A DNA stretch of 64,000 nucleotides from an uncultured Planctomycetales bacterium (GTDB lineage: Bacteria > Planctomycetota > SBBH01), in NCBI GenBank assembly GCA_964455625.1, contig CAYVXZ010000005.1, positions 9,632-73,631 of the forward strand, read 5' to 3'. Positions 25,853 through 62,662 of the stretch are shown piece by piece; the stretch's first letter is position 1, and every line of letters begins with the position of its first letter. The notes under the pieces were generated by a model. The model had not been told where the DNA came from and made no database searches. It saw only the letters and a program-made list of their open reading frames with translations. The position numbers and the translations under genes are program-made.

Positions 25853-26121
25853 CCGATTCCCCGCGTACTTTCCCGCGTCTCGGCCTCGCCGCCACCGCTG
25901 CGGCCGGGATCGCCCTCTGCCTCCATGTCGGGGTCGGTTGGCTGGACGCCGGGCGCCCGCAACTCCGGCCGACCGGGCATCTGTCACTGGTTGCCGCCGC
26001 CGCCTGGATCTCCGCGACGGTGCCCGCCCTCCTCTTCGCGCTCCTCGAACGGAGGAACCGGGCCTGGTCCCTCGGTGTGCTGGGGGTCTGCCTGGCCGGT
26101 CACCTTCTCATTCTTCGTTGA
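25849..26121 (+). CDS. small hypothetical membrane protein
   Basis: 90 aa with two or three hydrophobic segments; start overlaps the GrpB stop (ATGA coupling). Confidence 0.35.
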   Translation: MTDSPRTFPRLGLAATAAAGIALCLHVGVGWLDAGRPQLRPTGHLSLVAAAAWISATVPALLFALLERRNRAWSLGVLGVCLAGHLLILR

Positions 26122-26140
26122 CGCTCCAACCGCCAGGTTT

Positions 26141-26665
26141 TCATGGCGGCTCCTTGAAGCCGATTCGTCTCGTTGCGACGGCCGGCGGCTCCATCAACTG
26201 CCGGATCGCTCCCAAAATCGCCTGGATCGCGCCGTCGTGGATCGACACCTTGCGCTCGAGTTCATCGAGCTTCCGGGCCAGCTCCTTGTGGACGGCCAGC
26301 GCCTCCCTCAAACGGATAAAGGCACGCACGATGAGAACGCTCGTCCGGACCGCCACGGAACTGTTGAGGACGCTCGCCAGCATCAGCGCCCCATGCTCGG
26401 TGAAGGCGCGGGGACGGCTGGGCGAGAATTTCAACCCCATGAGGTGGTCGCAATTTGCGACCACCTCGTCTTTCTCCGTCTGCGTCAGCTTGAACATGAA
26501 GTCCGGCGGGAAGCGGTCGAGATTCCGTTTCACCTGCTCATTCAAACGCTTCGTCGAAACGCCATACAGCCTGGCCAGATCGGCATCCAGCATCACGCGG
26601 TGCCCTCGGACAACGAAGATCCGCCGCTCGATCCGGTTCAATGCCCCCATCAGAGCAGGATACAC
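26141..26665 (-). CDS. ORF6N-domain protein (KilA-N/antirepressor-like, mobile-element associated)
   Basis: IFVVRGHRVMLDADLARLYGVSTKRLNEQVKRNLDRFPPDFMFKLT matches the ORF6N domain. Confidence 0.7.
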   Translation of the reverse strand: MYPALMGALNRIERRIFVVRGHRVMLDADLARLYGVSTKRLNEQVKRNLDRFPPDFMFKLTQTEKDEVVANCDHLMGLKFSPSRPRAFTEHGALMLASVLNSSVAVRTSVLIVRAFIRLREALAVHKELARKLDELERKVSIHDGAIQAILGAIRQLMEPPAVATRRIGFKEPP

Positions 26666-26685
26666 CCGCCGAGGAATAATGCAAA

Positions 26686-27264
26686 CTATTGTTTGCCATC
26701 AAGCGGCCGGGAGCGGGTCGCCGGGGAGACGGCGGCTATCGGGCGCCTTTTCCCCCCAGGCCCCCGCCGCCAACGGCCAAAACAGCCTGTCCGGGTTTCG
26801 TCCGTTTCGCCTCTCATGCCGGCGGCGCCGACGCACTGCCTTGCGCCCCTGTCGGCGGTTCGCCTGTCAGACATTCGCTTAGGGTGGGTTAATCGATTCC
26901 GTATTTTCAGGCTTGTCTGAAGGCTTTTCCATTCAGGCCCCGAAACATTGAGTTTCCAGCGGAGATTGAAGGCCTTGCTTACCAATGAAAAGGAGAATCG
27001 GACATTACTTAAAAAGCGGATTTTGGCTGGCCGATCAATTACCTCTCCTTTGTCATTGAGTTCCCAATCTAATTCATTGGCAAAGGAGACTTCCTCTTGG
27101 GAGAGCCTGTTTCTGCCATGAGATTCAATCGCGAACTGTTTCAAGCCAAAGACAACAGCTTCCATTAGCGAAAAAACACTCCTTGTTACCATTCGTCGTT
27201 TCGATTGAGAGATTCGATTTGGATTGAAAGAAGCGTCTGGGAAAAGGCACTCGTTTATGTCCAT
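26686..27264 (-). CDS. hypothetical protein in low-GC segment (possible degraded/fused gene; weak HEPN-like Rx4H motif)
   Basis: The N-terminal ~125 aa are encoded in a roughly 40% GC segment and end at ...LKIRNRLTHPKRM. The remaining C-terminal ~65 aa read through high-GC DNA with Arg/Gly-rich composition, which looks like read-through after a junction. Confidence 0.3.
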   Translation of the reverse strand: MDINECLFPDASFNPNRISQSKRRMVTRSVFSLMEAVVFGLKQFAIESHGRNRLSQEEVSFANELDWELNDKGEVIDRPAKIRFLSNVRFSFSLVSKAFNLRWKLNVSGPEWKSLQTSLKIRNRLTHPKRMSDRRTADRGARQCVGAAGMRGETDETRTGCFGRWRRGPGGKRRPIAAVSPATRSRPLDGKQ

Positions 27265-28091
27265 TGATAGTTCATGGTGGACATCCGCATTTCGAACGAC
27301 GATTTAAAAGAAATCCTCCGTTCTTACTTATGGTTTTATCGGCAGTACGTTTTACTTCTTCAATCCATAGTAGGCACGACTCACCGAAAACTTTTAAAAG
27401 CTCATCCAAAATCAAAATTTAGACTAGCTCTCCCCTCTAGAACGGAAATCCAAAATCTTTCAAAAATCCCGATTGAATCATTCTCGTGCTTCTTTCCGCC
27501 TCAACGTCACTCAAAAAGCTTAAGCTCCTGAATAGCATCCAAACTATTGAAACCAATTAGTTGTGGCGGGGGCCGATCGACAAAGCTGGCCGAAGGCCAG
27601 CGATTCCACCAGGGTGGGTGGGCCCGACCCCCTATTACTCACCAGGACCTGATCTGAACGGGGCCGCCGATGGGGGCCACAAGTGGGCGGGGTGAGAGGG
27701 GCCCCTCCGGCCGGCCGAGGCGCGGCTGGCCGTTTTTGGCGGCAGGGGGCCGGTAGAGAAAAGCCGGCCCGATAGGGCCGGCACTCCCTACGGGGGTGGG
27801 TGGGGAAATAGGTCTTATTTTTTTAGGTGGAGCGGGACGCTCGCGCTCCCGGCGGCCCGCGGCGGGAACCTGGACGCGGGGCTGAACCGGCAAGGCGAGG
27901 CGCGGTCTGGCGTGAACGGGGAAGACTGCCGCTGGCTTCGCCTCGCCGCCGCCGGTTCGCAGTGAGGCGGGGGTTGGCCAGTCTCCTCCCCGCCGAACGT
28001 CCCGCGAACAGGTGAACCGCCGGTAGGGCCGCAGGCGGACTGAAAATGTGTTTTTGTTCGGGGCCAATTATGCGGAGCGCACGCGTCAGCG

Positions 28092-28283
28092 CGCGCCCCG
28101 CGGCGGGAGCGTTTTCGGGGGCCTGATGGCGCCGGGCCGGTCAGGAGGTGCAAGGCCCGGCGGCATCGGAGCGACGAGGCGGCACGGATGCCGCCGAGGA
28201 GCGTCCCCCGACAAACGCGACCGCCGGAAGGGCAAGCGAGCGAGCGTCCCCGGCGCACGCGACCGGCGGTAGGGGCCGCAGAA
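28092..28283 (+). repeat. intergenic structured repeat element, copy 1 (family of 4)
   Basis: Conserved core GGGGGCCTGATGGnGCCGGGCCGGTCAGGAGGTGCAAGGCCCGGCGnCATCGGAGCGACGAGGCGGCACGGATGCCGCCGAGGAGCGTCCCCCGACAAAnGCGACCGCCGGAAGGGCAAGCGAGCG is shared with copies at 49904, 58266 and (partial) 62170. Confidence 0.8.
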
Positions 28284-28385
28284 TACCACCCCCACCCCAA
28301 CCCTCCCCCATCAAGGGGGAGGGAGTCATCACGTGACCCGTACCCCCCCCACCCTGTCCCTCCCCCGCGACGGAGGGGGAAACTG

Positions 28386-31130
28386 TTACAGCTGGTAAGC
28401 GGCGGGATCTGGCTTAAAGGGTCTTGCCAGCCACAGCGGGCGGCGGAGGTTGCCGGGGTGGACGGGCCGGGCCATCTTCATCCAACGCTGGTAGACGGCG
28501 AAGGACTTGTTGGTGTCCACGAAGACGTCGCCGTACTGGTCGGCGGGGCCCGGGAGGGTGACGGTCACCTTCTGGTGCCAGCAGTGCTGGCCGCTCAAGG
28601 GATCGGGCTGGACGGGAAAGATCAGATTCTGGTGGACGCCGGACTCGCTCCACCAGATCCGCTCGGAGTCGGGGTCGTCGCTCTTGAACGGCTTGACCCC
28701 CTCGAGCTTCCTCATCTTCCACTGTCCCGGCGCGACCTGGTCGAAGTTGACGACGGCGGTGGACCACCTCTCCCCCGCATGCCCGGGCAGGCGCCAGCGG
28801 CCCAGGTGATGCGAGCAGGCGACGATACCGGGGCGGATCGACTCGGTGACCCACGCCTTGTCGATGAAGAAGCCGATCTCGGTGGCGATCTTGAGGAGCT
28901 GGCCCGTCTCGACGCCGACGCGCTTCGCGTCCTCGGGGTGGATCCAGAGGGGGTTGGCGTGACTGATCTCGTTCAGCCACTTCGAGTTGCCGGAGCGCGT
29001 GTGGATCAGCGTCGGGAGCCGGAAGGTCGGGAGAAGCACCATCTCTCCCTTTTGGACGTCGATGTTCGACCAGTGGACCTGGCTCCGGATGTAGTTCGGG
29101 AGCATCTGGTCCTCCCACCCCCACTCCTTGAGGGTGGGCGAGTAGAACTCGAGTTTTTTCGACGGGGTCGGAAAGCCGGTGCGGGTCTTCCCCTCCACCT
29201 CGACGCCGGGGACGCCCGGTTTCACGGGGGTCTCGTGCGGACGATAGACATTTTCCTCCACCAGAAATGAGCCGTACTTCCGCATGTAGGCGAGCGGCGT
29301 CAGCCCTTCCTTCCTTGCGGCCTCCGGCAGGCCGGGGACGGAGTTCTCGAAGATCCACCGGTACTGTTCCTCGATCCGCATCTTCTGGCCCGGCTTGTAC
29401 GGCGACTCGAAGTACTTCCGGATCCCCAGGGTGCCGTCCGGGTCGATTCGCCAGGAGAGCTCGATCCAGAATTCGTCTTCTTCCCACACCTGCCCGATCC
29501 CGGCGGCCTCGTGCGCCTGCCAGGTGAGGTCGAACACCTTCCCCTGCTTTTCGAGGGCGACGCGCTGGACGGGCTGACGGAACCCGATCCAGCGGGCGGC
29601 GTGCGTCTCCTGGCTCATGAGGTCGTGCCGCTCGGAGCCCAGGCCCATCGGGAGGACGTAGTCGGCGAACTGCGCCGTCTCGCTCCAGACCGGCGTGAGG
29701 CAGGCGTGGCACTCGATCCCGGATTCGTCGGTGAGCATCTCGATCCAGCTGGCGCCGTCGGGGTTCGTCCAGACGGGGTTGTAGACGCGCGTGAAATACA
29801 TCGAGAGTTTTCCGCGTTTTTCCTTCAGGAAGTGCGGGAGCAAAAAGCTCATCTCGAAGAAGGCCAGGGGGAACTCCCGCGGCATCAGGAGCTCGCTCCA
29901 GACCTTCGGGGCCGGGGGCATGCTGTGCGGCATCGGGATCGACTTGTTGGTGTAGCTCGGGGCGGTGCCCCCCGGCGTGCTGACCGCCCCCATCAGGACC
30001 ACGATCAGCTCGAGAGCCCGCGCCACCTGCCAGCCGCCCAGATTCCCCGCGGCGGCGTTCCGCCAGATGTGGGTGGCGAGGGCCGAGCCGGCGCGGCCGA
30101 TCTCGTGCGCCACCTCGATGATCGTCGCGGCGGGGACGCGGGTTTCCTTCTCGGCGAATTCGGGGGTGTATTCGGCGTAGATCTCTTTCAGGGCCGCTTC
30201 GAACGCCTCGAACGTCTGCGGGCCGTTCGGCCGCTCGGCCTTCAGGTACTCGGGCCAGTTGACCCAGTTCTTCACGAACTCGCGGTTGTAGAGCCCTTCG
30301 CGCACCAGGATGTTCGCGATGGCGAGAAGCAGGGCCGCCTCGCTCCCCGGCCAGGTGGAGAGCCAGTAGTCGGCCATCGAGGCGGTGTTCGAGAGGCGCG
30401 TGTCGATGACGCAGAGCTTCGCCCCCTTCTCCTTCCCCTCCATGATCCGCTGGGCGTGGGGGTTGAAGTAGTGACCGGTCTCCAGGTGCGACGAGAGCAG
30501 GAGCATGAAACGCGCGTTCGCGTGGTCCGGCGACGGCCGGTCGTACCCGTGCCAGAAGGCGTACCCGGCGCGCGCCGAAGAGGAACAGACGTTCGTGTGG
30601 CTGTTGTGCCCGTCGATCCCCCAGGCGTGCAGGACCCTCTGCAGGTAGACGAGCTCCATCCCGGGGCGCCCCAGGTGGTACATGACCTCTTCGGGCTTCT
30701 TCGCGACGAGCGACTTCCGGATCCGTCCGGCGATGTCGTCCAGGACCGCGTCCCAGGTGACACGCTCCCATTTTCCGCTCCCGCGCGGGCCGACCCGCTT
30801 CAGGGGGTACGGGATCCGCTCCGGGTCCTGGATCTGGTTCAGCGTGGCGGGCCCCTTGGCGCAGGTGCGGCCGCGGCTCCCGGGGTGCGTCGGGTTCCCC
30901 TCGAACTTCTGGACCTGCAGGGTCTTTTTATCGACGTAAGAAAGGAGCCCGCAGGCGGACTCGCAGTTGAAGCAAATCGTCGGGATCAGCCAGTAGTTCC
31001 GCTCGACCTTCTTCGGCCAGGACTTGCCGTCGAGCTCCGTCCAGTCGTCCCACCGCGACGCGGGCGGAAACGACGCCAGCCCCCCGGGCGGGAGGTCGAG
31101 ATCCTTGGCGGCGGGGTTCAGGGGCTCCAT
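28386..31130 (-). CDS. molybdopterin (Mo-bisPGD) oxidoreductase catalytic subunit, Psr/Phs/Ttr-like; no recognisable Tat signal
   Basis: 914 aa; N-terminal CFNCESACGLL...GRTCAKGPA (CxxCxxxC...C-KG FeS/Mo-bisPGD motif); typical MopB size. Its start ATG abuts the stop of the upstream FeS-NrfD gene. Confidence 0.75.
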   Translation of the reverse strand: MEPLNPAAKDLDLPPGGLASFPPASRWDDWTELDGKSWPKKVERNYWLIPTICFNCESACGLLSYVDKKTLQVQKFEGNPTHPGSRGRTCAKGPATLNQIQDPERIPYPLKRVGPRGSGKWERVTWDAVLDDIAGRIRKSLVAKKPEEVMYHLGRPGMELVYLQRVLHAWGIDGHNSHTNVCSSSARAGYAFWHGYDRPSPDHANARFMLLLSSHLETGHYFNPHAQRIMEGKEKGAKLCVIDTRLSNTASMADYWLSTWPGSEAALLLAIANILVREGLYNREFVKNWVNWPEYLKAERPNGPQTFEAFEAALKEIYAEYTPEFAEKETRVPAATIIEVAHEIGRAGSALATHIWRNAAAGNLGGWQVARALELIVVLMGAVSTPGGTAPSYTNKSIPMPHSMPPAPKVWSELLMPREFPLAFFEMSFLLPHFLKEKRGKLSMYFTRVYNPVWTNPDGASWIEMLTDESGIECHACLTPVWSETAQFADYVLPMGLGSERHDLMSQETHAARWIGFRQPVQRVALEKQGKVFDLTWQAHEAAGIGQVWEEDEFWIELSWRIDPDGTLGIRKYFESPYKPGQKMRIEEQYRWIFENSVPGLPEAARKEGLTPLAYMRKYGSFLVEENVYRPHETPVKPGVPGVEVEGKTRTGFPTPSKKLEFYSPTLKEWGWEDQMLPNYIRSQVHWSNIDVQKGEMVLLPTFRLPTLIHTRSGNSKWLNEISHANPLWIHPEDAKRVGVETGQLLKIATEIGFFIDKAWVTESIRPGIVACSHHLGRWRLPGHAGERWSTAVVNFDQVAPGQWKMRKLEGVKPFKSDDPDSERIWWSESGVHQNLIFPVQPDPLSGQHCWHQKVTVTLPGPADQYGDVFVDTNKSFAVYQRWMKMARPVHPGNLRRPLWLARPFKPDPAAYQL

Positions 31131-32738: not shown

Positions 32739-32747
32739 GCGCCCGCC

Positions 32748-33365
32748 CTACTTGTTCTTCCGGTGCTTGATCTTCTCGCGCGCCTTCTCGCCGGCGCGGT
32801 CGTCCTTGTGCTCCTTGTGGAACTTCCTCTCGCGGTCGAGCTGCTCCTTCCCCTCGCGGCGCGTCAGGGAGCCGTCGCCGTCGGTGTCGGCCCGGTCGAA
32901 CCGCTTCCCCCCGAAAAGCCGCTCCTCGAGCGGCGTCGCCTCCGCCTTCGCCTCGGTGCGTGTCAGGCCTCCGTTCCCGTCGGCGTCCGCCCGGTCGAAC
33001 CGCTCCTCGCGGTAGCCGTCCTCGTCGGTGTACCCCTTCTTCCAGCGCTCCACCCCCTCGCGGCGGGCGTCGCCGGCCCGATGCCGGTGCTTCCGGCACA
33101 TCTCGTGGAAGCGGTGCCGCTTGATGCGACCGTTCTCGTCGGAAAACCGCTTCCACCAGGCGCGATCCGCCTCGGAGCCATCCGTCAGGCCCGCGGCGGC
33201 CGCCTCGTCAAAGGTGAGCTCTCCGTCGCGGTCGGCGTCCGTCTGGACGAACGTCTCCTCGTCCCTTGCTTCGAGCGATTCCACCTCCTCGGAACGCACC
33301 ACACTGCCGGCCAGAAAAGCCCCCGCTGCCAGCATCCATCTCCCCATCTTCCATCCGTTGCTCAT
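32748..33365 (-). CDS. secreted EF-hand calcium-binding protein, paralog A
   Basis: Start ATG at 33365 (MSNGWKMGRWMLAAGAFLAGSVV signal peptide; AAAGGA RBS). Three canonical EF loops: DADRDGELTFDE, DADGNGGLTRTE, DTDGDGSLTRRE. The track start at 33434 is a TTG lying inside the promoter. Confidence 0.8.
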   Translation of the reverse strand: MSNGWKMGRWMLAAGAFLAGSVVRSEEVESLEARDEETFVQTDADRDGELTFDEAAAAGLTDGSEADRAWWKRFSDENGRIKRHRFHEMCRKHRHRAGDARREGVERWKKGYTDEDGYREERFDRADADGNGGLTRTEAKAEATPLEERLFGGKRFDRADTDGDGSLTRREGKEQLDRERKFHKEHKDDRAGEKAREKIKHRKNK

Positions 33366-33418
33366 GACCCGTCCTTTCTGGCATGTATGCCCTTGTTTCC
33401 CCACGACGGGAATATCAA

Positions 33419-33434
33419 GCATATTCCGTGCCAA
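33419..33434 (-). promoter_or_regulatory. sigma-54 (-24/-12) promoter upstream of EF-hand gene A
   Basis: Minus strand reads TTGGCACGGAATATGC, i.e. TGGCACG-N4-ATGC against consensus TGGCACG-N4-TTGCW; about 54 nt upstream of the start codon. Confidence 0.6.
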
Positions 33435-33651
33435 TGGTCATGCCGGGTCAGAAAGCCAGGGGCGATCCGGAGAGCGCTCTGAAATCCGACAGGTGCCGGG
33501 AATACCCGCACCAAAGAGGGTAGAGGGTGTCGAGACCGCGCCGGGGACGTCAGCCAGCGGGAGTGTTCCCACGGAGGCCCAGGTCGAAGCACGAAAGATG
33601 AAGCAGCGTGGAGCAGAATCCCCTCCTCAAATTCACCATTCTCCGATTGTT

Positions 33652-43513: not shown

Positions 43514-43527
43514 CGTCGCTTCGGGTC

Positions 43528-44112
43528 CTACTTGTTCTTCCGGTGCTTGATCTTCTCGCGCGCCTTCTCGCCGGCGCGGTCGTCCTTGTGCTCCTTGTGG
43601 AACTTCCTCTCGCGGTCGAGCTGCTCCTTCCCCTCGCGGCGCGTCAGGGAGCCGTCGCCGTCGGTGTCGGCCCGGTCGAACCGCTTCCCCCCGAAAAGCC
43701 GCTCCTCGAGCGGCGTCGCCTCCGCCTTCGCCTCGGCGCGGGTCAGGCCGCCGCTCCCGTCGGCGTCGGCCCGCTCGAACCGCTCGCTGTTGCGCTCCGG
43801 GTCCCCGTACGCCTTCTTCCAGCGATCGGTCCCCTGGCGGTGCCTGCGGCACATCTCGTGGAAGAGATGGCGCTTCAGGCGCCCGTTCCCGTCGGAGACC
43901 CGCTTCCACCAGGCCCGGTCGGCCTCGCAGCCGTCGGTGAGGCCGGCCGCGGCCGCCTCCTCGAACGTGATCTCCCCGTCCTTGTCGGCATCGGTCCGGG
44001 CGAACGTCTCCTCGTCCCCGGCGTCGATCGACTCCACCTCTTCGGCCCGGACGCCCCCTCCGGCGAGGCATCCCGCGACCAGGATCCATCCCATCATCTT
44101 CCCGCTTTCCAT
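43528..44112 (-). CDS. EF-hand calcium-binding lipoprotein, paralog B
   Basis: Start ATG at 44112 (MESGKMMGWILVAGC, lipobox-like; AAAGGAAA RBS). Three EF loops: DADKDGEITFEE, DADGSGGLTRAE, DTDGDGSLTRRE. The 3' 213 nt are identical to paralog A. Confidence 0.8.
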   Translation of the reverse strand: MESGKMMGWILVAGCLAGGGVRAEEVESIDAGDEETFARTDADKDGEITFEEAAAAGLTDGCEADRAWWKRVSDGNGRLKRHLFHEMCRRHRQGTDRWKKAYGDPERNSERFERADADGSGGLTRAEAKAEATPLEERLFGGKRFDRADTDGDGSLTRREGKEQLDRERKFHKEHKDDRAGEKAREKIKHRKNK

Positions 44113-44166
44113 GCACGTTTCCTTTCTGGCACGCATGCCGTTATCCCTCACCGGATGAATAGTCAG

Positions 44167-44183
44167 GCATTTCCCGTGCCAAC
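44167..44183 (-). promoter_or_regulatory. sigma-54 (-24/-12) promoter upstream of EF-hand gene B
   Basis: Minus strand reads TTGGCACGGGAAATGC (TGGCACG-N4-ATGC), the same architecture as the promoter of paralog A. Confidence 0.6.
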
Positions 44184-44273
44184 GATCATGCCTGGCAGGG
44201 AAACACGAAACGGTCCTGATACTGTCCTGGAATCCTACGATTGCCGGAAAATACCCCGGCTGGCCGGGGGGCG

Positions 44274-48251: not shown

Positions 48252-49649
48252 ATGCCGGGCCCGACATCCGACGCGAAAAGGCCCTCCCTCGCGGGCCTCC
48301 CCTCCGTCGACGCCATCCTGCACGTCCCGCCCGTCGCGACGCTCGTCCTCTCGGCGCCGCGGCTCCTCGTGGTCGATGCCGTCCGGACCGCGATCGCGCG
48401 GGCGCGCGCGGCCGCCCTGAAGGGGATCGCGCCCGACCCGGCGGCGATCGCCCGGGACGCCGCCCGGATCCACGCCGAGGAGCGGCGCCGGGGGCTCGTC
48501 CGGGTCATCAACGCCACGGGTGTGATCCTGCACACGGGGCTGGGACGCGCGCCGCTTTCCATCCGGGCGCGCCAGGCCCTCGAGGCGCTCTCCGGTTACG
48601 GAAGCCTGGAACTCGACCTCGCCACCAACGAACGCGGCCAGCGCGACGCCCACGTGGCGCGCCTCCTCGCGCGCCTCACCGGCGCGCAGGACGGGTGCGT
48701 GGTGAACAACAACGCCGCCGCGACCCTGATCGCGCTCTCGTCGCTCGCGGCCGGGAAAGAGGTGATCGTCGCGCGCGGCCAGCTCGTCGAGATCGGCGGG
48801 TCGTTCCGCCTCCCCGAGGTGATGGAGAAGTCCGGCGCGCGCCTGCGCGAGGTCGGGGCCACCAACAAGGTGCGCCTCTCCGACTACGCCAGGGCGATCA
48901 ACAAGGGGACCGGCCTGATCATGCGCGTCCACACCTCCAACTACAAGGTGATGGGATTCACCGAGGAGGTCCCGATCGAGGACCTGGTGAAGCTGGGCCG
49001 CCGGCACAGGATCCCGGTGATGGACGACATCGGAAGCGGCGCCCTCGTCGATTTCTCCCGCTGGGGGCTCCCCGAAGAGCCGACCGCCCGGCGCAGCATC
49101 AAGGCCGGGGCGGACATCGTCTGTTTCAGCGGCGACAAGCTGTTGGGCGGCCCCCAGGCGGGGATCCTGATCGGAAAAAAGCCCGCCGTCGCGGCGATCC
49201 GGAAGAACCCCTTCTACCGGGCGGTGCGGGTGGGGAAATCGACCCTCGCCCCCCTGCAGGCGACCTTGGAAAGCTATCTCTCGGGAGAGGACCAGGCGAT
49301 CCTGCAGATCCCCACTCTCTGGATGATCCGCCAGACGGAGGCCTCCCTCAAGGACCGGGCCGAGACCCTGGCCCGGCGGATCGCCGACGCGGCCCCCGCC
49401 CTCGCCGTCTCGGCCGAGAGGACGGATTCCCAGCTCGGCTCCGGCTCCATGCCGACGCACGACCTCCCCAGCTGGGCGGTGGCGATCACCACCCCGAAGG
49501 CGGCCGGGCTTGCCCGTCGCCTGCGCGAGGGGACGCATCCGGTCCTCGCGCGCATCCAGAAGGGGAAGATCCTCCTCGACCTCCGGACCGTGGACCTCTC
49601 CGAGGAAAAGGAGATCGTCGCGGCCTGCGAGAGCCTGCTCAAGGACTAG
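48252..49649 (+). CDS. selA: L-seryl-tRNA(Sec) selenium transferase
   Basis: MPGPTSDAKRPSLAGLPSVDAILH...VINATGVILHTGLGRAPL...FSGDKLLGGPQAGILIG; start set at the internal Met (48252) by homology. Confidence 0.85.
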   Translation: MPGPTSDAKRPSLAGLPSVDAILHVPPVATLVLSAPRLLVVDAVRTAIARARAAALKGIAPDPAAIARDAARIHAEERRRGLVRVINATGVILHTGLGRAPLSIRARQALEALSGYGSLELDLATNERGQRDAHVARLLARLTGAQDGCVVNNNAAATLIALSSLAAGKEVIVARGQLVEIGGSFRLPEVMEKSGARLREVGATNKVRLSDYARAINKGTGLIMRVHTSNYKVMGFTEEVPIEDLVKLGRRHRIPVMDDIGSGALVDFSRWGLPEEPTARRSIKAGADIVCFSGDKLLGGPQAGILIGKKPAVAAIRKNPFYRAVRVGKSTLAPLQATLESYLSGEDQAILQIPTLWMIRQTEASLKDRAETLARRIADAAPALAVSAERTDSQLGSGSMPTHDLPSWAVAITTPKAAGLARRLREGTHPVLARIQKGKILLDLRTVDLSEEKEIVAACESLLKD

Positions 49650-49903
49650 AAGACCCTCCGGATGGCGCCGTTGCTCCGCTCATGCGGCCCCTGATGCCGG
49701 AAGCGGGTCGCCGGGGACGTTCCTCGCGGCGTCCTGCCGCTCGTCACTCGGGTTGCGCCGCCGCCCGCGAGGCGCGGGGACGGCTACGGGCCTCCGCATC
49801 CTTGCTCCGGAGCGCGCTCCACACGCCCCGGACGACCGCTCCCGACCGGGGCCGCGCGCGTTCGCATGCGTCCGGCTCTGGATGAACCGAACGAACGCGA
49901 CGG

Positions 49904-50072
49904 CGTGCGCCCCGCGGCGGGAGCCTTTTCGGGGGCCTGATGTCGTCGGGTCGTTCAGGACGTGCTAGACCCGACGATATCGGAGCGACGAGGCGGCACG
50001 GATGCCGCCGAGGAAGCGTCCCCCGACAAAGGCGAACCGCCGGAAGGGGCGCCGAAGCCGAGCAAAGGCACC
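49904..50072 (+). repeat. intergenic structured repeat element, copy 2
   Basis: Same core as 28092..28283. The hairpin arms carry compensatory substitutions (GTCGGGTC...GACCCGAC versus GCCGGGCC...GGCCCGGC). Confidence 0.8.
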
Positions 50073-50393
50073 ATTGAGACTTTAGAGCCACCGAAAATAA
50101 CTGGGCTCTGGCGCGGCGCGCGAGATTGCGGCCGATGGCAAGACGCGGCGAGGAGGCAACCCTGGCGGAACGGGTTTCCGACGAGCCGCAACGCCGCCAC
50201 GCGGCCGCAAGATCCTGCGCCCCTCCGGGTTGCGGCGGGGCTGGGCCGTCTCCGGTGTCGCTCCTCCTCATCGTATTTCCCCTCAATACGTTTCGTCGTC
50301 GCTCCTGGGATCCGGCCCAGCCGCGCTCGCAACGCGCCGAGATCCAGTTTTTTCCGGTGGCTCTTAGGCTAAAAAGCCGAAAAACAGGGTTGG

Positions 50394-51740
50394 ATGGGTG
50401 TCTCGCAACTGTTCCTGCCGGAAATCCTCGACGCCTTGAGCGCGCACGACCCGGAGAGCCTGCGCGCCATCTTCGAGTCCCTGCACCCTTCCGACATCGC
50501 CGAGATCCTGGCGAAGCTCGACCCCGAGCGGATCGCCGAGATCGTGAAGGTCCTGGACGCCAAGCACGGGATCGCCGTCTTCGAGCAGCTCCCGCTGGCC
50601 CAGCAGTCCCAGGTCCTCCGGATCGTGGGCCGCAAGGAGATGATCCGGCTCCTCGAGGACCTCTCCTCCGACGACCGGGTGGACGTGATCCGGCACCTGC
50701 CGCCGGAGACGGTCGACGAGATCCTGCCCCTGATGGCGCAGGCGGAACGCGACGACGTCCGGAAGCTCCTCCAGTACCAGGAGGGGACCGCCGGATCGGT
50801 CATGACCACGGAGTACGCCTCGCTCCCCCCCGCGATCACCGTGGGCGAGGCGATCCAGACGATCCGCCATGTCGCCCCCGAGCGCGAGACGATCTACGTC
50901 ATCTACGTCGTCGACCCGGACCGAAAGCTCCTCGGGACGCTGTCGCTCCGCGATCTCGTCATCGCGAAGCCGGAAGTGAGGATCGAGGACCTGATGAACC
51001 CCAACCCCGTCTTCATGCGCGTCACCGACGACCGCGAGGACGTGGCGCGCGCCCTGGGGAAGTACGACCTCATCGCGATCCCGATCGTGGACGACGACCA
51101 CCGCCTCGTCGGGATCGTGACGCACGACGACGTGATCGACATCCAGCGCCAGGAGCAGACCGAGGACGTCCACCGGATGGGCGCGGTCGGGCGCCTCGAC
51201 GTCCCCTACCTGAAGGCGAACTTCTGGAACGTGGCCGCCAAGCGCGGCAGCTGGCTCGCGATCCTGTTTGTCGGGGGGACGCTCACGAGCCTCGCCATCC
51301 ACCGGTTCGACGCGACCCTGACGGCCTACGCCCACCTGGCGTGGTTCCTGCCGCTCATCATCGCCTCCGGCGGGAATTCGGGCAGCCAGTCGGCCACCCT
51401 GATCATCCGGGCGCTCGCAGTGGGCGATGTGACGCCGCAGGACTGGATGCGGATCCTCAAGCGCGAGCTCGTGACGAGCCTCCTCCTGGGATGCGCGCTC
51501 GCGGTCCTGGGGATGGCGTTCACGCGGTTCTGGAACCTCGACGGGATGTCGAGCGCGGTCGTGAGCCTCTCCCTCTTTCTCGTCGTCCTCTACGGGACGG
51601 TGGTCGGGGGGCTGCTTCCGATCGGGATCCAGAAGATGGGACTCGACCCCGCGATCACGTCGTCCCCGTTCATCTCCTGCCTCGTGGACGTGTCGGGGAT
51701 CGTCATCTACCTGACGGTCGCGACGCTGGTCCTGCGCTGA
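50394..51740 (+). CDS. mgtE: magnesium transporter MgtE
   Basis: N-terminal MgtE_N domain, two CBS motifs and a C-terminal TM domain (GGNSGSQSATLIIRALAVG). Confidence 0.9.
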   Translation: MGVSQLFLPEILDALSAHDPESLRAIFESLHPSDIAEILAKLDPERIAEIVKVLDAKHGIAVFEQLPLAQQSQVLRIVGRKEMIRLLEDLSSDDRVDVIRHLPPETVDEILPLMAQAERDDVRKLLQYQEGTAGSVMTTEYASLPPAITVGEAIQTIRHVAPERETIYVIYVVDPDRKLLGTLSLRDLVIAKPEVRIEDLMNPNPVFMRVTDDREDVARALGKYDLIAIPIVDDDHRLVGIVTHDDVIDIQRQEQTEDVHRMGAVGRLDVPYLKANFWNVAAKRGSWLAILFVGGTLTSLAIHRFDATLTAYAHLAWFLPLIIASGGNSGSQSATLIIRALAVGDVTPQDWMRILKRELVTSLLLGCALAVLGMAFTRFWNLDGMSSAVVSLSLFLVVLYGTVVGGLLPIGIQKMGLDPAITSSPFISCLVDVSGIVIYLTVATLVLR

Positions 51741-52619
51741 TCAGTCCTCGGGGTCCCCTTCCGGCTCGAGGTGGATCGTGACGTCGTGGAGCCCCGGGAA
51801 GGCGCCGCGCAGGCTCGCCTCGACCCGGTGCGACAGCGCGTGCGCCTCGCTCACCGGCATGGCGGGATCCACGAGCAGGTGAAGGTCGAGGAAGACCTCG
51901 TCAGCGATCCCGCGCGTCCGGATCCGGTGGCACGCCTTCACCTCGGGGAACGACCGGACCGTCCGCTCGATCTGGACGCGGTCGATCACCCGCTCGTCCG
52001 AGATCAGCGAGGCGTTCCGGGCCACGATGCGGTATCCCTGGAAGGCGATCACGACCGCCACGAGAAGCGCCGCGGCGAGGTCCACCTCGTGGATCCCGAC
52101 CGCCGCCGCCCCCAGCGACGCCAGCACCGTCATGGAGACCCAGACGTCGCTCGCCGTGTGCGCGGCGTCGCTCGCCAGGAGCGCGCTCCCGTAGCGCTCG
52201 CCCGCCGCGCGCTCGTAGCGCGTCACGAGGATGTTCACCGCGATGGTGACGATCATGACGGCGAACGGAAGGACCCCGGTCTCGATCGCCGTCTCCCCCC
52301 GCAGGCGGCTCCAGGCCTCCGTCACCACGTTCCAGGCCGCCCAGAAGAGCGACATCGCGATCCCGAGCGCCACCACCAGCTCGAATTTCCGGTGGCCGTA
52401 CGGATGCTCCTCGTCGGGCGGCTTCATCGCCATCCGCATCCCCACGAGGCCGGCGACGTTCGCGAGGCTGTCCGACAGCGAGTGGAAGGCATCCGCCTCC
52501 AGGCTCAAGCTCCCGTAATGGACGCCGCAGGCGTACTTGGCGGCCGCCACGACGGCGTTGGCGACCAGGGTCCACCAGAGGACCCGCGTGACGCCTGCGT
52601 AGCGCGCGTCGCGGTCCAC
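51741..52619 (-). CDS. cation diffusion facilitator (CDF) family transporter
   Basis: GTG start at about 52619; HSLSDSLANVAGLVG...HPYGHRKFE...SDAAHTASDVW are CDF signatures. The track fuses it into a spurious 1000-aa ORF. Confidence 0.8.
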   Translation of the reverse strand: MDRDARYAGVTRVLWWTLVANAVVAAAKYACGVHYGSLSLEADAFHSLSDSLANVAGLVGMRMAMKPPDEEHPYGHRKFELVVALGIAMSLFWAAWNVVTEAWSRLRGETAIETGVLPFAVMIVTIAVNILVTRYERAAGERYGSALLASDAAHTASDVWVSMTVLASLGAAAVGIHEVDLAAALLVAVVIAFQGYRIVARNASLISDERVIDRVQIERTVRSFPEVKACHRIRTRGIADEVFLDLHLLVDPAMPVSEAHALSHRVEASLRGAFPGLHDVTIHLEPEGDPED

Positions 52620-52627
52620 GAGAGAAC

Positions 52628-53929
52628 CTAGAATTCGGTGGCGCTTGCGAAGTTGAATTCCGAAAGGCGCGCCGGCGGGATCGACGAGAGGGTCTCCCCC
52701 TCGATGCCGGAGGTGACGGCGGGGGAACCCAGCGCCTCGATGCGGGAAAGGATCGAGAGGACGCTCTCGTTGAAGCGGAAATTCTTGACGGCATGGGCGA
52801 TCCGGCCGTCCTCGACCCAGTAGAGCCCGTCGCGCGTCATGCCGGTGAGCATCAGGCTCATCGGCTCGACGTAGCGGATGTACCAGAAGCGCGTGACGAG
52901 AAGCCCCCGCTTCATGCCGCGCGCGAGGTCCTCCGGCGTCCCGGTCCCCCCGGCCATCACCAGGTTCACGGGGCTCCCGACCGGGCGCAGGCCGTTCTTC
53001 TTCGCCCACCAGCGCGAGGTGAGGAGGGTCTTGAGGACGCCGCCTTCGATCCAGGGGACGGTCTCGGCGGGAAGCCCCCCGTCCGTGAAGGGGCGCCCCG
53101 GGCATCCCGGATGGTTGGGGACCGTCCGGACGGTCACGTTCGTCCCGACGATCCGCTCGCCGAGCTTCCCGGAGGCGAAACTGCGCCCCTCGGCCGCGGC
53201 CTTGGCGTCCATCATCCAGAACATGAACGCCAGGAGGTCCGCCAGCCCCGGCGCGGCAATGACCGCCGGATAGGTGCCAGGGGCCAGGCTCCGCGGGTTG
53301 CGGGCGGCCAGGGCCTTCTCGACCGCGCGATCCGCCGCCCCGGCGATGTCGATCCCGTCCACATCGATCCCCACCGATTCGGCCCAGCCGGAGGAGTTGT
53401 CGGTAATCGCCGTGTTGGTGTAGTTCGCCATCGTCCCGCGATGCTCGGCCCGGAGCCCGCGCGAGTTGGCCATGAAGACCGCCTTCTCCCCGGTGTGGAA
53501 GCTGCCGGCCATGAGCACCCCGGCGGCGCGGGCCTTCTCGAAGGCGGGCAGGAGCCGCTCCGCCTTCTCGCGGGGCTCGATCGATGCCGTGCGCGGGACG
53601 AACGCCTCCACCTTCGGGTACTGCTGGGCCGGCAGCCCCGGCACGAACTCGAGGTCTGGCGGGGAGCTCCGGGCGATCTCGCAGGCGCGCGCGGCCGTCT
53701 CCCGGAGGCTCGGCGCGTCGAGCCGGTTCGTGGCGGCGCACCCGACCTTCTCGCCGAAGGCCGCCTTCACGCGCACCGTCGCGTCCCGGCGCACCAGGTT
53801 CTGCGTGATCGTGTTGTTGGAGAAGCGTGTCGCGGCGGAAGAGACCGTCTCGAGGACGACGGAAGCCTCGTCGGCCTTCGCGTGGCCCAGGGCCTCCTCC
53901 AGGATCCGGCGCGCCTCGGCGGATTCCAT
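52628..53929 (-). CDS. TldD/PmbA family metallopeptidase
   Basis: 433 aa; overall TldD/PmbA-like sequence (…GGVLKTLLTSRWWAKKNG…RFWYIRYVEPMSLMLTGMTRDGLYWVEDGRIAHAVKNFRFN). Confidence 0.75.
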   Translation of the reverse strand: MESAEARRILEEALGHAKADEASVVLETVSSAATRFSNNTITQNLVRRDATVRVKAAFGEKVGCAATNRLDAPSLRETAARACEIARSSPPDLEFVPGLPAQQYPKVEAFVPRTASIEPREKAERLLPAFEKARAAGVLMAGSFHTGEKAVFMANSRGLRAEHRGTMANYTNTAITDNSSGWAESVGIDVDGIDIAGAADRAVEKALAARNPRSLAPGTYPAVIAAPGLADLLAFMFWMMDAKAAAEGRSFASGKLGERIVGTNVTVRTVPNHPGCPGRPFTDGGLPAETVPWIEGGVLKTLLTSRWWAKKNGLRPVGSPVNLVMAGGTGTPEDLARGMKRGLLVTRFWYIRYVEPMSLMLTGMTRDGLYWVEDGRIAHAVKNFRFNESVLSILSRIEALGSPAVTSGIEGETLSSIPPARLSEFNFASATEF

Positions 53930-54002
53930 CGCGATACTCTACAGTCCCCGGACGGGAAACAAAACCCGTTCGCGGGGGGTGCCGAGCCGCTAGACTGTCC
54001 CG

Positions 54003-54731
54003 GTGAAAAAGACAAAAAAACCCGCGAAGACCGAAGCCCCCCGGATCATCCCCGCCCGGGCCGACCACAACCATCCGAGCGCCGCCGAGGAACCCTGGCG
54101 GATCTTCCGGATCATGGGGGAGTTCGTCGAGGGGTTCGAGACCCTCTCGAAGATCGGCCCTGCGGTCTCCCTTTTCGGCTCGGCCCGGGCCCGGCCGAAC
54201 GACCCCTACTACAGGCTGGCCGAGCAGGTGGCGGCGGGGATCGCGAAGCTCGGGTTCGCGGTCATCACCGGGGGCGGCCCCGGCATCATGGAGGCCGCCA
54301 ACAAGGGGGCCAAGCGCGCCGGCGGGAAATCCGTCGGCCTCAACATCGACCTCCCGTTCGAGCAGCACCCGAACCGCCACCTCACGACGCTCATCAACTT
54401 CCGCTACTTCTTCTGCCGCAAGGTCTGCTTCATCAAGTACACGAGCGCCGTCCTGATCTTCCCGGGCGGCCTGGGGACCCTGGACGAGTTCTTCGAGCTC
54501 GTCACCCTCATCCAGACGATGAAGATCAAGCGGATCCCGATCGTCCTGGTGGGGTCGCGCTACTGGCGCGGGATGCTCTCCTGGATCCGCAAGGAGATGC
54601 TCGGCTCCGGCTACATCTCGCCCGAGGACATGGACCTCTTCGTGCTGGCGGACAGGGCCCCCCAGATCGTCCGGCTCATCAAGAAGACGAAGATCCAGTA
54701 CAGCATCCTGGAGTATGCCGACCGGACCTAG
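54003..54731 (+). CDS. LOG family protein (TIGR00730 Rossmann-fold nucleotide-binding / cytokinin riboside 5'-monophosphate phosphoribohydrolase-like)
   Basis: AVITGGGPGIMEAANKGAKRAGGKSVGLNIDLPFEQ...IFPGGLGTLDEFFE. Confidence 0.85.
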   Translation: MKKTKKPAKTEAPRIIPARADHNHPSAAEEPWRIFRIMGEFVEGFETLSKIGPAVSLFGSARARPNDPYYRLAEQVAAGIAKLGFAVITGGGPGIMEAANKGAKRAGGKSVGLNIDLPFEQHPNRHLTTLINFRYFFCRKVCFIKYTSAVLIFPGGLGTLDEFFELVTLIQTMKIKRIPIVLVGSRYWRGMLSWIRKEMLGSGYISPEDMDLFVLADRAPQIVRLIKKTKIQYSILEYADRT

Positions 54732-55962
54732 ACGCGTTCTCATCTTCTCCGCGTCCGCCGGGGCGGGACACGTGCGGGCCGGACAGGCCCTGGAGGCCGC
54801 CTTCCGGCTGGCCGGCTATGCGGGCCCGGGCGGTTTCGAGGCGCGGCACGTCGACGCGCTGACCCTGGCCACGGGTGTCTTCCGCCACCTCTACTCGAAG
54901 GCGTACCTCGATTTCGTGGACACGGCCCCGGGAATGTTCGGCTACCTCTACGACCGCACCGACCGCCCTTCCAGGAGCGGGCGCTACCCCGCCGACCGGC
55001 TGCGCCTGGCGTTCGACAAGCTCAACACCCGCCGTTTCGTGGAGTACATCGCCGACTTCCGGCCCGACCTCATCGTGAACACCCACTTCCTGCCGGCCGA
55101 GATCATCTCGAACCTGAAGCTGGAGGGCGGGATCGCGGCCCGCCACGCGGTGGTGATCACCGACATCGAGTCGCACCGCTACTGGGTCTACCCGGGCGTC
55201 GACCGGTACTTCGTCGCCTCGGGCGAGGCGCAGGCGTACCTGCGCCGGATGGGGATCCCGCCCGACCGGATCACCGTGAGCGGCATCCCGATCGACCCTG
55301 CCTTCCGCCAGGCGAGAAGCCGCCGGGAATGCCGGGCCGAGCTGCATCTCGATCCGCACCTGCCGGTGGTCCTGGTGCTGGCGGGCGGGTTCGCCGTGGG
55401 CCCGGTCGACGAGATCGTGGAGGCGCTCCTCGACATCCCGCATCCGGCGCAGATCGTCGTCGTGGCCGGGCGGAACGACCGGATGCGCCGGAAGCTCGCC
55501 GCGCGCTTCGCCGTCCGGAAGCCCGCCGGCCCCTGGCGCACGCTCCGGGCGCGCCTGGGGCGGGAGCGCAAGCTCCCCGGGAACCACGAGAACCTGCGGC
55601 GCCTGCGCGTCATCGGATTTGTCGGGAACATCGACGTCTGGATGGGCGCGGCGGACCTCCTCGTCACGAAGCCCGGCGGCCTCACCACCGCGGAGGCGCT
55701 CGCGAAGGGGCTGCCGATGGTGCTCGTCAGCGCCATTCCGGGACAGGAGACCCGCAACAGCGACTACCTCCTCGAGAAGGGAGCGGCCGTGAAGGCGTCA
55801 AATCCCGTCATGCTCGCCTACAAGACGGCGCGCCTCCTCGAGAACCCCGCGGAGCTCGCCGCCCTGTCCCGCGCGGGGGCCCGCGTGGCGCGCCCCGCCG
55901 CCGGCGAGGAGATCGTCCGGGCGCTCGTCCGCGAGCCGGCCGCCCTGTCCACGGAGGCCTGA
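54715..55962 (+). CDS. GT28-family glycosyltransferase (MGDG synthase / diacylglycerol glycosyltransferase-like)
   Basis: MPTGPRRVLIFSASAGAGHVRAGQALEAAF...ADLLVTKPGGLTTAEALAKGLPMVL. Confidence 0.75.
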   Translation: MPTGPRRVLIFSASAGAGHVRAGQALEAAFRLAGYAGPGGFEARHVDALTLATGVFRHLYSKAYLDFVDTAPGMFGYLYDRTDRPSRSGRYPADRLRLAFDKLNTRRFVEYIADFRPDLIVNTHFLPAEIISNLKLEGGIAARHAVVITDIESHRYWVYPGVDRYFVASGEAQAYLRRMGIPPDRITVSGIPIDPAFRQARSRRECRAELHLDPHLPVVLVLAGGFAVGPVDEIVEALLDIPHPAQIVVVAGRNDRMRRKLAARFAVRKPAGPWRTLRARLGRERKLPGNHENLRRLRVIGFVGNIDVWMGAADLLVTKPGGLTTAEALAKGLPMVLVSAIPGQETRNSDYLLEKGAAVKASNPVMLAYKTARLLENPAELAALSRAGARVARPAAGEEIVRALVREPAALSTEA

Positions 55963-55965
55963 CCC

Positions 55966-56631
55966 ATGGAAATGCTGAAAGAGGCGATCGACGTCATGCT
56001 GCACCTCGACGCCCATCTCAACGAGTGGATCGGCGCGACGGGAAACTGGTTCTACGTCCTCATGTTCCTGGTCATCTTCTGCGAGACGGGGCTCGTCGTG
56101 ACCCCGTTCCTGCCGGGGGACTCCCTCCTCTTCGCCCTCGGGGCGCTCACCACCACGGAGAATGCCGCCTTGAGCCTGCCGGTCCTCCTCGTCTCGCTCA
56201 CCGCTGCCGGAATCATCGGCGACGCCGTGAACTATTCCTGCGGCCGCTGGATCGGCCCGAAGGTCTTCACGAGCGAGACCTCGCGCTTCCTGAAGCGGGA
56301 CCACCTCCTCAAGGCCCAGGCCTTTTTCGAGCGGCACGGCGGCAAGGCGATCATCTTCGCCCGCTTCGCGCCGATCGTCCGGACCTTCGTCCCGTTCGTC
56401 GCCGGGATCGGCCGGATGCACTACCCGCGCTTCGCCCTCTTCAACGTCGTCGGCGCCATCGCCTGGGTGGCGGGGTTCCTGCTCGCCGGCCACTACTTCG
56501 GGAACATCCCCGCCGTGAAGCGGAACTTCCACATCGTGATCTTCGGGATCATCGGCGTCTCGCTCCTCCCGATCGTGATCGAGTTCTTCCGCGCCCGGGC
56601 GGCCTCCAAGACCCCCGCCGCCGGCGCCTGA
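55966..56631 (+). CDS. DedA/VTT-domain membrane protein
   Basis: LMFLVIFCETGLVVTPFLPGDSLLFALG...ARFAPIVRTFVPFVAGIGRM. Confidence 0.85.
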   Translation: MEMLKEAIDVMLHLDAHLNEWIGATGNWFYVLMFLVIFCETGLVVTPFLPGDSLLFALGALTTTENAALSLPVLLVSLTAAGIIGDAVNYSCGRWIGPKVFTSETSRFLKRDHLLKAQAFFERHGGKAIIFARFAPIVRTFVPFVAGIGRMHYPRFALFNVVGAIAWVAGFLLAGHYFGNIPAVKRNFHIVIFGIIGVSLLPIVIEFFRARAASKTPAAGA

Positions 56632-56692
56632 TCACGAACCGGCCATCCGGCCTCCGACTCACCCCCTTGCACGCCCCCGGGTCGGTCCGTAA

Positions 56693-58156
<1,464 letters not shown>

Positions 58157-58265
58157 CCCCCTTCGAGAGCATTTTTACCATGGCCGGCCGGAGAGGCCCC
58201 TCTCACCCGCCCGCCTACGGCTCCTGTCGCCGGCCGCCCCCGCAAAGCGAGCGGCCCGGAGGCGG

Positions 58266-58405
58266 GAGCGGTTGCGGGGGCCTGATGGAGCCGGGCCGGT
58301 CAGGAGGTGCAAGGCCCGGCGACATCGGAGCGACCGAGCGGCATGGACGCCGCGAGGGAGCGTCCCCCGCCAAATGCGACCGCCGAAAGGGCAAAGCGAG
58401 CGCGC
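58266..58405 (+). repeat. intergenic structured repeat element, copy 3
   Basis: Same core as 28092..28283; lies immediately 3' of guaB. Confidence 0.8.
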
Positions 58406-58460
58406 GGTTCCTGCAGGGACGTCGTTTCCACAAAAACCGCACAATAATTCCAGAAACGCT

Positions 58461-59336: not shown

Positions 59337-59346
59337 CCGGTGGCGA

Positions 59347-60879: not shown

Positions 60880-60915
60880 GGCCGAAGTATAGCACCCCTG
60901 CTAGAATCCCCGCCC

Positions 60916-62026: not shown

Positions 62027-62169
62027 TCAGCCAGCGGCGACTCCTTGAGGGTGGGCGGCGGGGAGGCGGAGGCGGGTCCGAGTGTTTTTTTGTCTTCGGC
62101 ACGACGGCATCAACGTCATCGCCCCACGTCATGCGGCCCCGGCCGGTCGCGGTCGTCCGGGGCGTGTGG

Positions 62170-62300
62170 AGTAGGCCCGGAGCATGGATGCGGAGGGCCG
62201 TAGCCGTCCCCGCGCTTCGCGGGCGGCGGCGCAACTCGAGTGACGAGCGGCACGGATGCCGCGAGGAATGTCCCCGGCGACTGCGACCGGCGGTAGGGGA
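62170..62300 (+). repeat. intergenic structured repeat element, copy 4 (3' half conserved, 5' hairpin degenerate)
   Basis: GAGCGGCACGGATGCCGCGAGGAATGTCCCCGGCGACTGCGACCGGCGGTAGGGGA matches the 3' half of the family core. Confidence 0.65.
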
Positions 62301-62306
62301 CGCTTT

Positions 62307-62660: not shown

Positions 62661-62662
62661 GG

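Follow-up and report, generated by a model that had tools for sequence, protein, structure and literature searches.

What is the GC-rich structured repeat that recurs between the genes of an uncultured Planctomycetales bacterium, and does it act as RNA or as DNA? The question arises from a 64,000-nt stretch of contig CAYVXZ010000005.1 (positions 9,632-73,631; hereafter the window, in whose numbering all positions are given). The window contains a non-coding repeat family dispersed among the genes, with six full copies in three subtypes (A, B and C) and one solo 3' end, and a unit size of about 150-190 nt. The family is real, far beyond chance. It is very probably a dispersed structured repeat of the TwoAYGGAY class, the RNA motif of Rfam family RF01731. 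On balance, it is best read as a non-coding, non-autonomous dispersed repeat, a GC-rich divergent TwoAYGGAY variant that likely supplies protein-binding hairpins of the CsrA type in 3' untranslated regions (3' UTRs).

An earlier prediction from the sequence alone (the original prediction) had named four copies, all on the + strand and each just 3' of a + strand gene. Related sequence is found at all four places, as part of the larger set below, in which scores marked R1 come from a covariance model (CM) built from the three A copies only.

27851-28037, + strand: copy C0, the divergent copy of subtype C (nhmmer E 1.4e-29; R1 26.3 bits, E 0.0023)
28092-28249, + strand: copy A1, copy 1 of the original prediction (R1 170 bits)
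28237-28283, + strand: solo 3' end, B/C-like, GUCCCCGGCGCACGCGACCGGCGGUAGGGGCCGCAG (nhmmer 3'-end profile E 5.7e-6)
49672-49858, - strand: copy B2, subtype B (nhmmer E 5e-61)
49906-50067, + strand: copy A2, copy 2 of the original prediction, in the selA-mgtE spacer (R1 158 bits)
58251-58409, + strand: copy A3, copy 3 of the original prediction, between the convergent genes guaB (+) and ubiA (-) (R1 149.5 bits)
62133-62303, + strand: copy B1, copy 4 of the original prediction (R1 29.9 bits, E 4.7e-4, full length)
26843-26876, - strand: a possible, weak, decayed 3'-end remnant (nhmmer 3'-end profile E 0.066, not significant alone; blastn fragments)
26706-26727: a second B-like 3'-end match near the weak remnant (blastn fragments)

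The three copies of subtype A are 74-88% identical over 141 nt (nhmmer E 1e-41 to 1e-45), and B2 and positions 62133-62252 of B1 are inverted repeats of 92-95% identity. The similarity of B1 to the A copies is confined to the 3' 65-80 nt. The solo 3' end matches B1 positions 137-179 at 84% (blastn), and no 5' end matching it was found. Across the full copies the nhmmer E-values range from 1e-29 to 1e-61, which excludes chance similarity, and self-BLAST of the window gave no similarity past the units of about 190 nt, so that the copies are not fragments of a longer transposon. Nothing specific speaks for either of these origins. Integron attC sites come to mind because the copies sit 3' of genes, but the neighbours selA, guaB and prfB are housekeeping genes rather than cassettes, and no GTTRRRY core sites were seen on reading the ends. 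Transposon fragments, attC sites or chance GC-rich similarity together have a negligible likelihood. Single-base indels separate the A copies from each other in the alignment, which excludes a shared reading frame; a protein-coding reading of the repeat was rejected on these indels and the lack of a Pfam match.

These results enlarge the four-copy family that had been proposed and change some of its features. The fourth copy belongs to the family through its 3' 65-80 nt, but it is of subtype B and lacks the 5' hairpin quoted for the others. The rule that all copies lie on the + strand behind + strand genes fails for B2, which is on the - strand, antisense and right after selA. The assignments of selA, mgtE, guaB, ubiA and prfB are confirmed; the 'small ORF' (open reading frame) given as the neighbour of copy 1 (27827-28015), in contrast, overlaps C0 and has no Pfam match, and copy 1 is therefore not 3' of a demonstrable gene. 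The direct repeats around copy 1 do exist, at 28019-28037 and 28263-28283, but they are not target-site duplications: one is the 3' terminus of C0, and the other is that of the solo 3' end.

In the fold of every copy, a composite stem of about 25 bp, P1, closes a multi-helix or three-way junction; its arms contain 21-28 Watson-Crick pairs in all six. The termini of P1 have the sequences GCGGCCCC...GGGGCCGC, and the stem includes the conserved helices CGGCGG/CCGCCG and CGGGGG/CCCCCG. Its middle helix differs by subtype, being GCGUUU/AAACGC in A, ACCUG/CAGGU in C0 and UCGCGGUCG/CGACUGCGA in B1, so that pairing and not sequence is conserved there. The predicted folds of the sense strand reach -92 to -123 kcal/mol, with z-scores of -2.3 to -7.7; the minimum free energy (MFE) is -99 to -101 kcal/mol for A1 (z -5 to -7.7) and -109.5 kcal/mol for B1 (z -4.1), and the C0 fold reaches -125 kcal/mol (z -5.1). 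The A copies follow the order P1, hairpin 1, a single A, hairpin 2, GU and P1, which is laid out in A1 as follows.

28095-28122, + strand: P1, 5' strand
28123-28169, + strand: hairpin 1, with the loop GGAGG at 28144-28148
28170, + strand: linker A
28171-28202, + strand: hairpin 2, with two tandem G.A pairs and the loop ACGGAU at 28184-28189
28203-28233, + strand: P1, 3' strand

Hairpin 1 of the A copies has a lower stem CCUGAUG/CAUCGG, followed by GCCGGGCC/GGCCCGGC and a CA-GGAGG-UG tip. Hairpin 2 is GCGACGAGGCGGC-ACGGAU-GCCGCCGAGGAGC with two tandem G.A/A.G steps, as read from A1, and its hexaloop AYGGAY closed by C-G gives CANGGANG, the CsrA/RsmE site consensus. A1, A2 and A3 each combine one AYGGAY loop (ACGGAU or AUGGAC) with a GGAGG or GGACG loop closed by CA/UG. 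In A3 the hairpin 2 loop is AUGGAC, and the second tandem G.A has moved by one pair, with compensation. The B copies carry AYGGAY-type loops on their first and last hairpins and have an extra GC-rich middle hairpin. In B1 both loops are true AYGGAY loops (AUGGAU within 62183-62190 and ACGGAU within 62251-62258), P1 includes a perfect helix of 14 bp and a UUUUU run follows P1 directly; in B2 the loops are AAGGAU and a shortened AGGAC. Two tandem G.A pairs are present in hairpin 2 of A1, A2, A3 and B1, and one in C0. The paired GGA loops of the module are about 40-70 nt apart, and a two-site spacing of this kind is one that a CsrA dimer could bridge.

The pairing is maintained through sequence change. 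The hairpin strings quoted for copies 1-3 in the original prediction are exact, and the two C-to-U changes matched by G-to-A changes in copy 2 are real: they convert CG to UA at columns 41-69 and 46-64, in hairpin 1 of A2, which also has a GC-to-CG change in P1. Covariation goes well beyond this one pair of changes. When five copies are aligned to R1, 94.2% of the cells are paired against 80.2% in shuffles, and double-sided changes occur in 23 of the 52 pairs, where shuffles give 7.2 and slid controls 1-4, none of 500 shuffles matching either the paired-cell fraction or the double-change count; the alignment was fitted to the structure and contains five related sequences, so these figures are supportive and are not to be taken as a probability. 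The claim that selection acts on the secondary structure, and that drift does not account for the changes, holds, on stronger grounds than those on which it was made.

Which strand carries the selected structure is indicated less directly. In each of the six copies the fold of the sense strand is more stable than that of the antisense strand by 11.5-18.5 kcal/mol, a gap that exists partly because the sense strand is G-rich. Dinucleotide shuffling of the six copies gives z-scores of -7.7, -7.7, -5.3, -3.8, -2.3 and -4.9 for the sense strand and of -5.3, -6.3, -2.3, -4.0, -0.7 and -4.1 for the antisense strand. A count of 23 G.U against 1 A.C pairs in MFE structures was dropped as RNA evidence, the method being biased. 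The strand is better marked by the AYGGAY loops and the tandem G.A pairs, motifs that are meaningful on one strand only.

The relation to TwoAYGGAY became visible through a pattern taken from the window element, GCGGCAYGGAYGCCGC..GTCCCC, which occurs at 20 loci in 596 Gb of genomes. Most of these loci belong to a multi-copy Lachnospiraceae element that scores 74-76 bits with RF01731, as seen in the positive controls L008 and L010; the gathering score of that model is 43 bits. The Lachnospiraceae elements and the A copies have an identical junction: GGGG, hairpin 1, A, hairpin 2 with its AYGGAY loop, GU and CCCC. A very long closing stem is likewise common to the two. The junction, the placement of hairpin 1 and P1 all fall outside the search pattern. 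R1 scores members of RF01731 at 23-27 bits (E 0.005-0.03). Three metagenome elements (L023, L025 and L027) are matched over their full length by R1 at 36-40 bits and by the RF01731 model at 37-43 bits, and being scored by both they form a bridge between the two groups. In the published descriptions, P1 of TwoAYGGAY is often about 24 bp long with few mismatches (Weinberg et al. 2010, PMC2864571), and the motif has two tandem G.A pairs and strong, unvalidated matches to CsrA sites (PMC4333381). RF01731 is grouped with CsrB in Rfam clan CL00106. The most fitting label for the family is that of a new planctomycete variant of TwoAYGGAY, rich in GC; by the Rfam model it is not a member.

The original prediction had offered a small RNA (sRNA), a 3'-UTR module or an element like repetitive extragenic palindromes (REP) or miniature inverted-repeat transposable elements (MITE). 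It made no choice among these, and the closest known relative, the TwoAYGGAY RNA motif, was missing from the list. Of the checks that it proposed, a covariance model (R1) finds B1 and C0 beyond the A copies from which it was built, and Rfam has no relevant match in the window.

The search also sheds light on TwoAYGGAY itself. In Lachnospiraceae metagenome-assembled genomes (MAGs; L003-L015, L018 and L020) the element occurs as a discrete unit of 220-290 nt, and one MAG contains 11 copies or more. The outer arms, 60 nt long, reach far past the Rfam model and are 84-96% complementary within a copy and about 72% identical between copies. In L011 (Ketobacter) and in L016 and L019 (Clostridia), a long perfect stem surrounds two GGA-loop hairpins, and RF01731 misses these elements, which suggests a wider class than Rfam covers.

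The positions of the copies relative to genes are relevant to how the element might work. A2, A3 and B1 lie in sense orientation downstream of selA, guaB and prfB, with B1 beginning 107 nt past the prfB stop, and among the Lachnospiraceae copies 9 of 11 point the same way as the ORF that precedes them (by crude ORF calls). Readthrough from the upstream gene in the sense orientation would place a very stable structured three-way-junction module in the 3' UTR. Its two GGA loops, which fit the CsrA/RsmE consensus, would be binding sites for a CsrA-family dimer or for some other protein that recognises RNA loops of this kind, and the module would then serve as a decoy, a regulatory site or a structure that protects the 3' end. 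CsrA and FliW are reported in Planctomycetes (PMC4682653). That CsrA itself is the partner of the loops is possible, though doubtful.

The same positions could be explained by a generic 3'-UTR stabiliser or terminator, similar to REP/BIME or ERIC elements, in which the stem blocks exonucleases or stops transcription and the loops have no specific partner. The copies lie 23-107 nt past stop codons, the stems are extremely stable, UUUUU follows P1 of B1 directly and two copies are located between convergent genes. However, the U-run is limited to B1, the terminator scan is empty at the copies, and a plain stem leaves the AYGGAY loops, the tandem G.A pairs and the junction linkers, which are conserved across three phyla, unexplained. 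This explanation is judged improbable. Independent sRNA genes, a multigene family of CsrB/RsmY-like sponges each with its own promoter and terminator, would also account for GGA hairpin loops that fit the CsrA/RsmE consensus; RF01731 belongs to the Csr/Rsm clan, and both Rfam and RMfam count TwoAYGGAY among the candidate sRNAs. Such genes are very unlikely here, as no sigma-70-like promoter lies near any copy, each unit has just two GGA loops, the copies adjoin stop codons or other copies and the orthologous sites in relatives are without copies.

A number of observations weigh against protein-binding 3'-UTR hairpins of the TwoAYGGAY type as well. The RF01731 model has no match in the window at its gathering score, and none at E<=10 on 27700-28400, on 49600-62400 or on B1 alone. 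Part of the cross-match between the covariance models arises by construction, because the loci were chosen with the hairpin 2 pattern. Only one true AYGGAY loop is present in each A copy, and C0 keeps the P1 ends, the junction and one tandem G.A and has no AYGGAY or GGA loops. B2 is antisense to selA, starting 23 nt past the selA stop and directly upstream of A2. A scan limited to sigma-70-type consensus sites found no promoter-like sites in 26000-29000 or 49400-63000, no canonical terminator was called at the copies, and tblastn found no csrA in the 64-kb window. The sense z-score is better than the antisense one in five of six copies, only by small margins. By the alignment, the P1 arms hold 7 G.U against 3 A.C, a difference that is not significant, and the Lachnospiraceae outer arms hold 9 G.U against 17 A.C and thus show no RNA-type bias. 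Given the weak strand asymmetry, the antisense B2, the loss of GGA loops in C0 and the pattern in the arms, the main rival is an element of the REPIN or MITE type that acts at the level of DNA.

A purely DNA-level selfish element of this kind would have its long P1 and subterminal hairpins recognised, in single-stranded or cruciform form, by a trans-acting transposase, for example a Y1/HUH enzyme of the RAYT type. The best named homologues of GuaB are in Planctomycetota MAGs. Between guaB and ubiA the window has 305 bp, whereas relatives whose GuaB is 87-90% identical have 60 bp or overlapping genes; between selA and mgtE it has 745 bp, whereas relatives have 209 bp (SelA 88%) and 119 bp (SelA 78%). 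The 209-bp gap contains only short stretches that, judged by eye, resemble the 3' ends of the element, and some 33 kb of DNA from the relatives yielded no member of the family. Presence/absence polymorphism is thus seen at the orthologous guaB-ubiA and selA-mgtE sites, although with relatives only 78-90% identical in protein the exact empty sites are not definable. The absence of the elements from the same gene junctions in relatives points to lineage-specific insertions, and copies at intergenic sites that are empty in relatives indicate that the family spread by insertion. Short-read assemblies from two independent runs end at 49735, inside B2, where the 95% repeat with B1 begins, and another (Logan contig L021) stops at 58211, 40 nt before A3, where a separate repeat of 32 nt lies; these breaks inside or next to copies imply that the elements are repeated in the genome.

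This lineage-specific presence at gene junctions favours the DNA-level reading, as do the clustering and nesting of the copies, the solo 3' end and arms without a bias of G.U over A.C. Reading the flanks of the copies gave no consistent target-site duplications, as Y1-type mobilisation predicts; an apparent GCAAAGCGAGCG repeat around A3 was discarded as such a duplication, since it is 3'-end sequence of the element. The self-complementarity of 84-96% in the Lachnospiraceae arms against about 72% identity between copies would fit hairpin-templated copying, and a hairpin mechanism at the DNA level would yield such a pattern too; arms that are near-perfectly complementary within a copy yet divergent between copies might reflect a hairpin-templated copying step in propagation. 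Also in favour of this reading, one relative, GCA_005239795.1, has a gene with Y1_Tnp and DnaA_C domains adjoining selA (L034 3397-4359). The sequences flanking this gene are unrelated to the repeats, and it was set aside as a lead to a RAYT. In the window there is no homologue of a Y1 transposase and no other candidate, so that no cognate transposase was identified. The ends pair as inverted repeats, as in MITEs, but the middle differs between subtypes and the ends do not recur in any longer element. The sequence at the 3' ends, G(U/A)AGGG, resembles the GTAG of REP sequences only loosely. BLAST against plasmid and phage records gave no match to the element, and the viral contig collection gave a single, unrelated match.

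Further points against a DNA-level element come from the structure. P1 is conserved between subtypes in pairing only, unlike terminal repeats bound by a transposase; strand-specific motifs are kept across phyla, the G.A/A.G tandems becoming U.C/C.U on the other strand; and the copies have an orientation bias relative to upstream genes. The DNA-level element, with covariation that comes from a need for the hairpin in transposition and RNA structure that is incidental, is regarded as a lesser but real possibility, and a GC-rich TwoAYGGAY variant with protein-binding 3'-UTR hairpins remains the reading of choice.

In a more novel reading, TwoAYGGAY-class elements may be mobile protein-decoy modules, that is, selfish non-autonomous repeats that carry a putative high-affinity two-site CsrA-like platform; this proposal is speculative and rather unlikely. 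It would entail, with as little likelihood, that the modules have invaded the 3' UTRs of three phyla or more (Bacillota, Gammaproteobacteria and Planctomycetota). If true, post-transcriptional control would be rewired at each landing site.

To our knowledge, TwoAYGGAY, whose link to CsrA is a prediction, has stayed an orphan motif since 2010. The window extends its core architecture to a third host phylum, Planctomycetota, in a GC-rich form that is missed by the Rfam model, so that the motif probably has a wider range than databases show. It also reveals mobile-element behaviour in a single genome: the element has subtypes, some copies are nested, one 3' end stands alone and the orthologous sites are empty. 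The three subtypes amount to a natural mutagenesis series, in which P1, the junction and the tandem G.A are kept and the GGA loops are two, one plus a degenerate one, or none, and they should be useful for testing what the loops bind. A practical effect is that the repeats break short-read assemblies of this lineage.

Several other features lie near the copies. A low-GC island at 26141-27560 (GC about 0.54, against 0.68 for the window) adjoins the cluster of C0 and A1 and is probably a small mobile island. It has a gene with an ORF6N domain (26141-26665, - strand; Pfam E 5e-29) and ORFs that could not be annotated at 26686-27264 (-) and 27274-27531 (+). The motif GGGTGGGT occurs at about 26883, 27613 and 27795. 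A second, unrelated short repeat, GGCGGGGUGAGAGGGGCCCCUCCGGCCGGCC, forms a 94% inverted pair at 27685-27716 and 58182-58212, the latter just upstream of A3. Between A1 and the end of a molybdopterin oxidoreductase gene, at 28283-28385, there are C-run/G-run hairpins, CCCUCCCCC-AUCAA-GGGGGAGGG and UCCCUCCCCC-GCGAC-GGAGGGGGA. They produce a spurious weak match to CRISPR-DR10 at 28350-28383 (21.9 bits, gathering 39), which was rejected as a CRISPR repeat. A direct duplication of about 700 nt (32747-33451 and 43527-44198; 82% identical, rising to 98% in the first 259 nt) is located within or beside large genes, and one Logan contig starts within it, at 43707. Directly after B1, a low-GC region on the - strand (62307-63916) encodes a 417-aa ORF with a DPxGE-type end and a sub-threshold RHS motif (23.3 bits, cut-off 27.9), followed by a 117-aa ORF without a family match; the pair looks like an Rhs toxin tip and its immunity gene.

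The neighbouring genes have features of their own. The prfB gene has a classical programmed +1 frameshift site, GGGGGU..CUU UGA C, at 60974-60988, which is why its long ORF starts at 61106 without the N-terminus. The C-terminus of GuaB (58140-58156) reads ..NYQVGS* in the window and ..NYWAQ* in the relatives L029 and L031, and the expansion of the guaB-ubiA spacer, whatever its cause, also replaced the last codons of GuaB. In GCA_005239795.1 the guaB-ubiA spacer contains a different perfect palindrome, GGATAGTGGTTAGTAGATAGTGGTTAGAA... (L029 4350-4411).

Three groups of known systems invite comparison. REP/BIME, REPIN, ERIC and Correia repeats and MITEs are, like the window element, short, non-coding, multi-copy and intergenic, with long hairpins; they are often co-transcribed in 3' UTRs and missing at orthologous sites. 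The window element differs in having a conserved branched core with specific loops instead of a simple palindrome, in a P1 sequence that varies by subtype, and in the lack of a target-site duplication, a GTAG signature and an identified cognate transposase. The sponges of the Csr/Rsm systems (CsrB, RF00018; RsmY/RsmZ; clan CL00106) share with it the loop-presented GGA motifs that fit CANGGANG and two sites at a bridgeable spacing. They carry about 4-22 sites, whereas the window unit has two, with a long enclosing P1 and no promoter of its own seen; the window element is moreover dispersed in many copies with insertion polymorphism, and its CsrA binding is a prediction only. The closest system is TwoAYGGAY. 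Here the differences are that the window copies get no score from the RF01731 model, that the host belongs to Planctomycetota whereas the RF01731 hosts are Clostridia or Gammaproteobacteria, and that the GC content of the window copies is 70-77% against about 55%. In addition, hairpin 1 of the A copies is much longer, with a GGAGG or GGACG pentaloop in place of AYGGAY, the B copies have an extra middle hairpin and C0 is without GGA loops. Neither element has an assigned function, and the two have in common their multi-copy intergenic distribution, the long closing P1, the three-way junction with its linkers (none, A and GU), AYGGAY loops closed by C-G, of which B1 has two and each A copy one, and tandem G.A pairs in hairpin 2.

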